From a virus (taxonomy: Duplodnaviria; Heunggongvirae; Uroviricota; Caudoviricetes): DNA of 6,898 bases. The DNA lies in IMG/VR virus record IMGVR_UViG_2695420482_000014. One strand, written 5' to 3'. Made by a program: the position numbers. The stretch's first letter is position 1. Each line of letters begins with the position of its first letter. Below, one piece after another: positions 1 to 3,000 of this stretch.

Positions 1-3000
1 TTATCCATTTATTTTATCCATTCTAATACCAATAATATCTCTATTATCGCCATATATTTTCTCTGCACTCCCGGCACCATAATACTGGTTGAAACAACGA
101 ACTTCGCTTGTCACCTCTTCATGGCTTTGAGATATAGTAAACATCTTCAACACTTTTGTTGTATTTTCCATATCTTCATACACGACAGCATTACCACCTT
201 TACCAATAACGTTACCTAGCACGGGTGATTTGTTGTTGCTAAGCCTCAGCAACGCTGACTGAGTATAATCCGCTGGCGGTAACTCCGGCTGCGCATAATC
301 CACTGGAGGTAAATCAGGTCTGTTCGAACGAACAGATCCTCTTTCTATAGTCGTGCTCACTGTCGATGAATTCAACATAGCCTCAATTTTTCTGGTGATC
401 TCTCCCTTAGGCCATCTCAGTCTATACAGCATATTAGTAAAACATCCACTATGACTCTCTCTTGTCACGCAAAACCTATTATCACTTAAAACAACGCGAT
501 ATGTTCTGTTGCTAACCTTTACTTGCGCCCCATTATCAGAGTGAGCGGCAGCATCCCTTACAGAGGGATAAAACACGATTATCAGGCAAAGTCAGGTTTC
601 TGGTTAAAGAATTCCATGAACACCCCAAATTTACAGAAGATGGTGATAGCATACATTTCAACCTTCAAAATGAATCAATCTTTACTTTCTTAACAAACAT
701 CACCATGACATGACAACAAAAAACTGGAAATTAACTATTGTTTTTGAGTATCTGGCAACTCATTCATCCTTCCAGCATCCCGTCAGACGAACGTTTACGA
801 ACTATAAATCAGGTATTACTGGCCCTCGAAATCTGGAGATACTGACGTATCAACACGGTTCAGTAACACCCGATACCTCTTCCAGACTGTCAACAACGAT
901 GTCTCTTCATCCGTTGCGATCTGCAGCATCCTGAATATGAATGCCATAGCTTACGGCATCACGAAAAGTTTATGAGCGGCTCAAAGCATCAAGTATAGTG
1001 TTGCCGATCATATCGACTGTATGCTGATCGATAAGCCTGCTACGGCTGTCATGGACGGCGCGTATTACACTTTCGTATACGTTGCTTAAATCTGCTGCGG
1101 AAAGTGGTATTCGCTTACCTATATCCAAAACGTAATCCGCATAGGCATTTTCAGCACGATTAGGAGCAATGGGAGCAGAGTATCCTGCCGGGGCGGAAAA
1201 GTTGAAGTTGGACTGTAATGAGGGAATTTTCATGTTTATATCTAATACCCTGCAAATCATTTATTACAACAAAATAAACTATATCAAATTCATTTACCAT
1301 GAACTGCATGTATACTGACTTGTGTTCATGATTATATTAGGGTGGTTAAACTCAATAAAGTCACAAAAATGATTATAATTATGTAATGGTGTAAAATTAA
1401 AATATTTCTTAACTCCTTTCCCCAAACCATCATAATATGGATGAGCATCTACTTTACTATGCATAAAAGAAAGTCCCTCAAGTAGAGCAGGATGATTACT
1501 ACGGTTAACAATTATTGCACTATTTTCAATATTTACACTATCATTACGACGATCCACATGCATTGAAATTCCATCAGGAGCATATATTGTACCAAGCTTA
1601 CCTGTAAGTATCATATCCATATCAAGATAGATACACCCCTCCCCGAATGAAATACCGTGATTCTTTGTATTATATGTGCACCTGAATATCTCTCCTGCTT
1701 TTAATAAGGCTAAATTTCTGAAGAAATCAAACCATGCATGATTTCTTTTCTTTGCATACATAGAAATCAAAGAATCCTGCGCCTTTGAAATTTCCCTCAG
1801 CTCTTTCTCTAACAGATTCAACAAGTATTCATCTCTTTTGTCTTCAGTTCGTAACCTTTGTTCACATATAATATCATGATAAATATCTGATAGTTTTCTG
1901 TCATACATACTGAAGTCAACATCTTCCCGATAGATTATCATTACATTTTCAAAATCTCGTTCCAATTTTGAAAAAGCAGTCTTTTGGTTGACTGAAAAAT
2001 CGCCATCAACAAAAATACCTATCATACGATCACTCTCTATCCTTGCCGCATTTGTGACATTATCTAAATAGGGATGCTGCTTAGTATTAACTATTGGAAC
2101 CTCATCTTTCTTATATCGTTCAGGATTAGGTTCAAACCACTGAAAAAGAATAGGCGTTTTTTCATCAATGACCTTTAACTCATATTCCTTTCCTGCAAAA
2201 GAAACCGTTTGACAGGGTGAACTCTGCACTATATTTACTGAGTTATGGAAAGTTGTCCTTATCGGTGAAAGCATTCGTCGTCCTGTTTATCCATATTTTC
2301 TTCACAACTAACTCTTTAATCTATTAATTATATTGGCATACTCAACCACAAAACCTCCAGCAGTTTTGCCATCTTTGCTTTCCTAACAAACATCCACCGG
2401 ACATGACAACAAAAACCGGAGCCGGACTCCGGTTTTGTGAAGCTGTCGGGTTACTTCATCCCGCCAATATTTTCCCACGTCCCGTCAGCACGCAGGATTT
2501 GCAGCGGTCTTACCACACACTGTATCTGCTTTTTATCCGCATCCAGTATCACCACCTGCGTGATTACCCTGGCCTGCTCCGGAATAATACCATTCTCATC
2601 TGACTCCAGGATGTCTGCCGGCCCCAGACGCAGTTGTGCTGTAAGTAACTCCCCGTGTTCACGGTCATCATGCTTTCCGTACCCGCACAGACGCTGCATA
2701 AGTTTTTTTAGTACGTTCATGTCATTCTCCTGTTCTGCCTGTATCACTGCCCACTTCATCCAGCCCCTTAACATCCTGCCACGGCCCGTCACCAAACCTG
2801 ACCTGCAAATGCTGAAACAGCCCCTGAACCTGTGTGGCATCTTTGGGGTCAAGAAAGGTCAGTCCGGTGATGAGCGCACCATCTGTACCCGGGAACCAGC
2901 CATTGCTGTTTGTCTCAATAATGCTCGCCGGCCCCAGACGAAAACGGATTTGTGTCTCCCCCGGGTCGCCCTTCGGTCCCTGAGGTCCGGTTGCCCCCAC

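Follow-up and report, generated by a model that had tools for sequence, protein, structure and literature searches.

An 89-residue paralogue of the collagen-like fibre tip, conserved and separately encoded directly behind the fibre gene of an Escherichia coli lambdoid prophage

Why should a prophage keep, immediately behind a tail fibre gene that ends in a tip domain, a second and separate gene for that same domain? The question is raised by a 6,898-nt stretch of the IMG/VR virus record IMGVR_UViG_2695420482_000014 (the window; all positions given here are those of the whole stretch), which is the tail end and cargo region of an Escherichia coli lambdoid prophage. An open reading frame of 89 amino acids, hereafter the small ORF, lies next to a collagen-like side tail fibre gene and repeats the C-terminal domain of the fibre, Phage_fiber_C (PfC). 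It is near certain that the small gene is a genuine, conserved copy of the fibre's own tip domain; our tentative reading of its product is a separately translated, non-essential accessory of the fibre tip that is neither a relic, nor a frameshift extension, nor an obligatory folding chaperone. The elements concerned, which like all tail and cargo genes listed in this paper are read on the minus strand, are as follows.

2722-4351, minus strand: collagen-like side tail fibre gene of the EPclA type (PfN, coiled coil, collagen, PfC; Pfam phage_tail_N, Collagen and Phage_fiber_C), a pseudogene here
2451-2720, minus strand: small ORF, 89 amino acids plus stop, identical to WP_001101707.1 and matching PHROG 576 over its full length
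2454-2639, minus strand: PfC domain of the small protein, residues 28-89 (PF06820, E 9.9e-35)
2640-2720, minus strand: unique N-terminus of the small protein, 27 residues, with a predicted short amphipathic helix (residues 3-12) followed by a Cys/His-rich linker (AlphaFold2 secondary structure, low confidence)
2758-2949, minus strand: PfC domain of the fibre, the paralogous copy (PF06820, E 4.4e-37)

The paralogy between the small protein and the fibre tip, noticed from the sequence of this stretch alone (the original prediction), is real. In BLASTP the small protein and the fibre C-terminus are 37% identical over 62 amino acids (E 5e-13), and the profile comparison agrees: residues 28-89 match PF06820 from end to end, at positions 1-64 of 64 (119.2 bits where the gathering score is 25 bits, E 9.9e-35), the fibre C-terminus also covers the whole profile (E 4.4e-37), and the small protein matches PHROG 576, an 89-residue 'tail fiber protein', at positions 1-89 of 89 (197.8 bits, E 3.8e-59). 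The relationship persists at the level of DNA as a 41-nt direct repeat with 71% identity (2590-2630 versus 2900-2940). The unique N-terminus that precedes the shared domain is longer than the 22 residues originally assigned to it, at about 27. A sequence search of solved structures with the small protein returned only chance matches, all above E 0.02.

As had been noted, a single base separates the fibre stop from the start of the small ORF (TGAcATG: stop TGA at 2722-2724, spacer at 2721, ATG at 2718-2720), a layout that suggests translational coupling of the small ORF to the fibre. The signals around the gene are these.

2722-2724, minus strand: fibre stop codon TGA, 1 nt before the small-ORF ATG, read from the sequence and kept across loci
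2727-2731, minus strand: Shine-Dalgarno sequence AGGAG, 6 nt upstream of the small-ORF ATG and within the last fibre codons, read from the sequence
2725-2757, minus strand: C-terminal tail of the fibre, eleven residues, overlapping the ribosome-binding region of the small ORF, with near-invariant DNA
2403-2436, minus strand: intrinsic terminator directly 3' of the small ORF, an 11-bp stem followed by a U-run (RNA fold)

To follow these elements among relatives, we assembled the small ORF with its flanking sequence from 86 loci, comprising 80 from IMG/VR, others from phage records, one from a genome and that of the window. In 82 of these 86 the junction reads ACAGGAGAATGACATGAA without change, the AGGAG in it lying 6 nt ahead of the ATG. 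Across 50 alleles, synonymous diversity (pS) in the last 11 fibre codons (2725-2757) falls to 0.0075, where the adjacent PfC codons have 0.12. No structure was detected in the RNA of this invariant stretch, and the simplest explanation for the collapse is that it doubles as the ribosome-binding region of the small ORF. At the other end of the gene, RNA folding gives the terminator hairpin -21.3 kcal/mol (z -3.64). A rule-based terminator scan found nothing at 2403-2436, because the A-tract there pairs with the U-run. Sequence diversity jumps just past the terminator, since the cargo varies among loci. With a hairpin directly after its stop codon and this jump beyond, the small ORF is thus the last cistron of the tail-fibre transcription unit.

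The same sample shows that the small gene is under strong purifying selection, stronger than that acting on the fibre's own PfC. Its length is 270 nt in all 86 loci, so that it is not the out-of-frame relic in related genomes that would have refuted the original prediction, and 62 of the 63 distinct alleles are free of internal stops. Taken as averages over non-independent alleles of closely related prophages, the ratios of non-synonymous to synonymous diversity (pN/pS) for the 62 intact alleles come to 0.12 for the whole gene, 0.04 for its PfC part and 0.28 for the N-terminal 27 codons (pS about 0.13), while the fibre PfC stands at 0.22. Constraint is present from the first codon onwards (pN/pS 0.13 for codons 1-10). 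Segregating sites in the PfC domain of the small protein number 20 synonymous and 6 non-synonymous, compared with 16 and 20 in the fibre PfC; the N-terminus of the small protein has 8 and 15. In every locus the two PfC copies share 19-25 identical residues out of 62 (31-40%) and no exact words longer than 14 nt, and they are therefore not being homogenised: exchange between them is possible but exceptional, and leaves no conversion tracts.

The feature itself is not new: it has been catalogued and discussed in the literature on Shiga toxin (Stx) phages, and it represents no new kind of system. The original prediction did not recognise the protein as a named family; it belongs in fact to PF06820 and PHROG 576, carries a product name at NCBI and has been discussed as ORF68 of the Stx2 phage Sp5 (PMC5155283). 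Mondal et al. (2016; PMC5155283) deleted late genes of unknown function from Sp5 and found the ORF67 fibre to be essential, while ORF68, the 89-residue PfC ORF, was dispensable for plaque formation and lysogenisation on K-12, with no titre change reported for its deletion; they found no frameshift signal and proposed that ORF68 might serve the fibre as a reservoir of variation. Ghosh et al. (2012; PMC3368898) had earlier defined the EPclA fibre type (PfN, coiled coil, collagen, PfC) and described its PfC, by size-exclusion chromatography with multi-angle laser light scattering, circular dichroism and electron microscopy, as a trimerisation knob measuring about 7 nm, which nucleates the collagen helix as it refolds. 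In their hands recombinant EPclA trimerised in E. coli without a partner, and part of it stayed monomeric or aggregated. That the small protein is translated is indicated at trace level by the supplement of the phi24B structure preprint, where two peptides of the homologue gp59, ADGTWENIGGMK and VITQVVILDADKK, are listed from virion preparations with 3 spectra each, beside 2,267 spectra for the fibre. New in the present analysis are the selection data, the conserved Shine-Dalgarno sequence and ATG, the non-coding +1 extension upstream of the ATG and the absence of a stimulatory RNA fold at the junction (see below), the terminator, the lack of homogenisation, the lack of resemblance to Tfa and the notice of trace gp59 peptides in the phi24B supplement.

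How might such a protein work? In the scheme that we propose, the steps with support are the early ones: the late transcript passes through the fibre gene and the small ORF and ends at the hairpin, ribosomes begin the small ORF at its own ATG, one base beyond the end of the fibre gene, and the protein so made is conserved, associated with virions at the trace level seen in the phi24B supplement, and dispensable for infectivity on K-12. Beyond this, by homology with the trimeric PfC of the fibre, the small protein may form a homotrimeric mini-knob behind a short amphipathic helix, and this mini-knob may act on the distal knob of the fibre, or together with it, as an accessory that is non-essential and sub-stoichiometric, for example as a loosely bound second knob or a conditional tip modulator. 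We consider this mechanism only moderately likely, and several points weigh against it. The deletion of Sp5 ORF68 had no phenotype on K-12 (PMC5155283). By the spectral counts in the phi24B supplement, gp59 in purified virions reaches only about 2% of the amount expected from one trimer per fibre, and this trace could be carry-over of a cytoplasmic factor. Conservation as high as that of the small protein is atypical of a receptor-binding tip. The trimeric knob was seen for the EPclA fibre copy, and both trimerisation of the small protein and its binding to the fibre are extended from there by homology. Finally, the AlphaFold2 monomer of the 89-residue protein, built on an 11-sequence alignment, is a poor model (predicted local distance difference test score 52, predicted TM-score 0.41); AlphaFold fails on the PfC domain according to the authors of the phi24B preprint.

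The main rival to the tip accessory is a non-essential assembly helper in the manner of Tfa, in which the PfC domain of the small protein would serve as a template or holdase that binds the nascent fibre C-terminus, raises the yield of trimers in register and then largely leaves the virion. A tfa position, translational coupling to the fibre and a place as the last gene before the terminator all fit this proposal, as do the mere trace in virions listed for phi24B and the strong conservation, which would suit recognition of a conserved partner; the product of gene 024 of lambda h434 imm21 is labelled 'tail fiber assembly chaperone' in GenBank, and recombinant EPclA alone is partly monomeric or aggregated (PMC3368898). 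However, the Sp5 fibre is essential while ORF68 is dispensable with no reported change in titre (PMC5155283), and recombinant EPclA and the isolated PfC trimerise and refold unaided (PMC3368898), so an essential chaperone role conflicts with published data. The resemblance of the small protein's C-terminus to a Tfa motif, suggested in the original prediction, dissolves on comparison: there is no sequence or profile similarity to Tfa (Caudo_TAP is not matched at E ≤ 1, and hhalign against the Tfa fragment of the window gives a probability of 1.7%). On balance we think a helper unlikely. Scarcity in virions would also suit a soluble decoy, with free PfC mini-knobs released at lysis occupying fibre ligands on debris or vesicles and so sparing progeny virions. 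Such a decoy would be made late with the fibre, as this gene is, would be of soluble size and mostly outside virions, as the phi24B supplement indicates for gp59, and would be dispensable in plate assays (PMC5155283); but at 31-40% identity to the fibre PfC the same ligand is not expected, and we hold a decoy very improbable.

Two further explanations locate the significance of the segment in its DNA or in the fibre polypeptide. As a silent recombination reservoir (Mondal et al.) or an orphaned former tip left by a domain replacement (the option that headed the original prediction), it would matter as DNA able to replace the fibre PfC. Rare natural recombinants do exist (P0063 and L088, described below), and the direct orientation of the copies permits deletion or duplication by unequal crossing-over. 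Against this, purifying selection acts on the protein from codon 1, including the N-terminal extension, all 86 copies are of intact length, the Shine-Dalgarno sequence and start codon are conserved, and peptides are listed in the phi24B supplement; exchange is very rare and without conversion tracts (shared words of at most 14 nt, 19-25 of 62 residues identical), and the recombinants are singletons or four sequences beside thousands of canonical copies. We give this explanation only a slight chance. A programmed +1 frameshift, which would append a second C-terminal PfC to some fibres as an alternative tip, is how GenBank describes atfT of AU6Stx1 ('alternate tail fiber tip', with a slippery site and pseudoknot predicted by the annotators). 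Relative to the fibre the small ORF does lie in the +1 frame, and in 75 of 81 loci no stop interrupts this frame over the 46 codons before the ATG; the last 45 nt or so of the fibre gene are also unusually invariant. Yet the canonical Shine-Dalgarno sequence and ATG account for this local invariance, and the upstream +1 extension bears no coding constraint, with pN/pS of 1.49 compared with 0.28 in the fibre frame. The RNA of the junction folds no better than shuffled sequence (z +0.67) and, in the sequence, the peptidyl-site codon ahead of UGA C is GAA, which cannot re-pair after a +1 shift. The prfB shift site, used here for comparison, is CUU-UGA-C. Mondal et al. (PMC5155283) likewise found no signal. 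Two fusion models were searched in the phi24B virion proteome, and the portion of the supplement covered here lists, from this region, only peptides shared with free gp59 and no junction peptide; the sole gel sample listed there with fusion-model counts above the fibre counts is a low-molecular-weight band. On coding constraint, RNA structure and codon context we therefore reject the frameshift fusion, which we rate as extremely unlikely.

A more specific idea than the tip accessory in general is that the small protein is a chaperone or cap paralogous to the fibre that is its client: as a free PfC trimer it would dock on the terminal knob along a common axis and make a conditional two-part tip, relevant only on natural hosts bearing O-antigen or near 42 °C, where the collagen shaft melts. 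We regard this version as quite unlikely. Coaxial docking of a mini-knob is made conceivable by P0236, a 565-residue metagenomic protein and distant homologue with four tandem PfC-like units, each after 2-4 Gly-X-Y triplets, and, downstream of these units, a long collagen region and then a different C-terminal domain. To judge from its sequence, PfC-like knobs occur not at C-termini alone but also internally and in series, and knobs of the PfC type can thus sit serially along a trimeric fibre. If coaxial docking were true, the fibre tip would be a two-part, separately encoded structure.

By tblastn the small ORF matched 296 of 50,697 phage records, with at least 294 copies at 80% identity or more, and the fibre PfC used as query likewise matched 296. 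Its carriers include short-tailed Stx phages (933W, Sp5 (VT2-Sakai), phi24B-like phages, Min27 and AU6Stx1) as well as long-tailed lambdoids (BP-4795, cdtI, YYZ-2008 and lambda h434), and the module of PfC and small ORF is therefore common to two virion types. Among 5,426 complete E. coli genomes 698 (about 13%) have the small ORF, and these positive genomes hold a median of 11 copies each. When 1.84 billion representative proteins were searched exhaustively with the profile, 92 hits came back, nearly all of them fragments of the Escherichia-type family, and no enterobacterial fibre with two PfC domains, such as a fused ancestor would be, was among them. Profile hits in several stretches that might have been PfC-PfC fusions turned out, P0236 excepted, to be SprB, CarboxypepD_reg or low-complexity repeats. 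Metagenomic proteins of about 99 residues (L089, 6001-6300; L090, 3808-4107), recovered with a P0236 repeat and considered as an independent lineage of the split arrangement, were set aside: they share only the N-terminal half of the P0236 repeat, and comparison with the upstream neighbour revealed no paralogy (E 0.2-3.5). Their genes belong to tail clusters of unknown phages, where each follows its upstream neighbour by 1 nt or overlaps it. A scan of genome contigs yielded two short loci only. A 725-bp contig labelled Xanthomonas pisi (NZ_JPLE01000138.1; L085) holds a small-ORF copy 90% identical to that of E. coli, most likely through assembly contamination.

The recombinants mentioned above are of two kinds. 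P0063 joins collagen straight to a PfC of the small-ORF type. At L088 (2697-2975; GCA_005381265.1, BDKZ01000033.1) three PfC genes stand in a row, an intact 437-residue fibre, a 92-residue chimera and the 89-residue ORF; the chimera consists of the N-terminal half of the small ORF and the C-terminal half of the fibre PfC, and the triple arrangement looks like the outcome of unequal crossing-over between the two paralogues.

Turning to the window itself, the fibre described in the original prediction as a gene ending in PfC does carry that domain, but the gene is not intact here. Two lesions break its frame, a 5-bp insertion at 4199-4203 (duplication of GCCCT) and a 305-bp tandem duplication at 2974-3562 in the collagen repeats, and together they spread it over three reading frames, of which the one shared with the PfC domain covers only the last 180 codons or so (the ORF fragment ending at 2722). 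The closest complete genome, E. coli O145:NM FWSEC0002, is 99.8% identical across window positions 1-3243 with the same gene order, lists the small ORF under WP_001101707.1 with the product name 'phage tail fiber C-terminal domain-containing protein' and has an intact 437-residue fibre. Both lesions are absent from all 5,426 complete E. coli genomes and are therefore either mutations private to the source strain or errors made in assembling a repeat-rich region. As to whether the small ORF outlasts the fibre in decaying prophages, fibres are disrupted in about 16 of 73 cases as against 1 of 63 distinct small-ORF alleles, a comparison between targets that differ 5-fold in size and in which full-length hits were selected. 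The remaining features of the window are listed below.

5102-6814, minus strand: tip protein J, C-terminal part (window ORF and Pfam scan)
4410-5069, minus strand: Lom (window ORF and Pfam scan)
1294-2274, minus strand: nleB2, type III effector cargo
970-1260, minus strand: nleC, truncated
816-947, minus strand: C-terminal remnant of Tfa (Caudo_TAP, E 5.5e-12)
1-661, minus strand: nleH, frameshifted
2371-2415, recurring at 678-722, strand not assigned: 45-nt boundary sequence (direct repeat D3, 87% identity)

The Tfa remnant comprises 43 codons and lies directly 3' of nleC, which is cut off at residue 96, an arrangement also annotated in NZ_CP031919; the junction looks like the scar of a recombination that imported a piece of a tfa-type fibre module. 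One copy of the 45-nt repeat is found just downstream of this remnant and the other just downstream of the small-ORF terminator, and it looks like a conserved boundary at which effector cargo and fibre modules are exchanged. That the same sequence follows both genes upholds the original view that the small ORF occupies the usual position of tfa. The 41 N-terminal codons of nleH (536-661) are out of frame with the kinase part (1-576), and the gene is annotated as 'frameshifted' in the closest genome as well.

Collagen-like fibres that end in PfC occur in about 13% of complete E. coli genomes, where 10 or more copies are frequent, and also in most Stx-converting phages, and the 2026 phi24B structure preprint raises the role of conserved lateral fibres in the spread of Stx phages. 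As the 89-residue partner always travels with these fibres and is more conserved than their tip, it offers a plausible handle on that question.

Of the systems with which the small ORF can be compared, the nearest are its own homologues. Sp5 ORF68, phi24B gp59, AU6Stx1 atfT and gene 024 of lambda h434 imm21 belong to the same family (about 90-98% identity), have the same length of 89 amino acids and start 1 nt after a collagen-like fibre ending in PfC; the window copy shows no substantive difference from them, its setting being a lambdoid, effector-carrying prophage with a broken fibre. The fibre PfC of EPclA and EPclB (Ghosh et al. 2012) is the same domain, PF06820, from which the small protein differs in having no collagen shaft, a 27-residue helix and linker in its place, about 37% identity and tighter constraint. 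Like the small ORF, the tfa genes of lambda, Mu and P2 (Caudo_TAP, PF02413) are small, adjoin the side tail fibre gene on its 3' side and come last in the operon. Unlike Tfa, with which it has no detectable homology, the small protein is homologous to the tip of its putative client; the fibre folds without it and its Sp5 homologue is dispensable, so that by the published experiments (PMC5155283, PMC3368898) it is not required for fibre assembly as a Tfa would be.

Nor is the locus an invertible switch of the Gin/Pin/Cin type, as the original prediction had rightly judged: the repeats are direct, and no recombinase ORF was found in the ORF list and Pfam scan of the window. In T2-type phages gp38, a small tip adhesin that is encoded just after the distal fibre gene, is hypervariable and sets host range. 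The small protein, unlike such adhesins, is nearly invariant and, by the phi24B supplement, sub-stoichiometric in virions. From programmed frameshifts (prfB-like +1 or lambda G/GT-like -1) the locus is set apart by the pN/pS of 1.49 in the +1 extension and by the phi24B supplementary data, which list no junction peptide in the portion covered here. Its GAA-UGA-C context also offers no re-pairing codon, and the junction RNA has a z of only +0.67. The foldon of T4 fibritin and the intramolecular chaperone domains of endosialidases and T5 pb1 are C-terminal nucleators of trimerisation that form part of the fibre chain. PfC plays a foldon-like role for the collagen shaft, providing C-terminal registration and nucleation, and here a second copy of it is encoded as a separate polypeptide.

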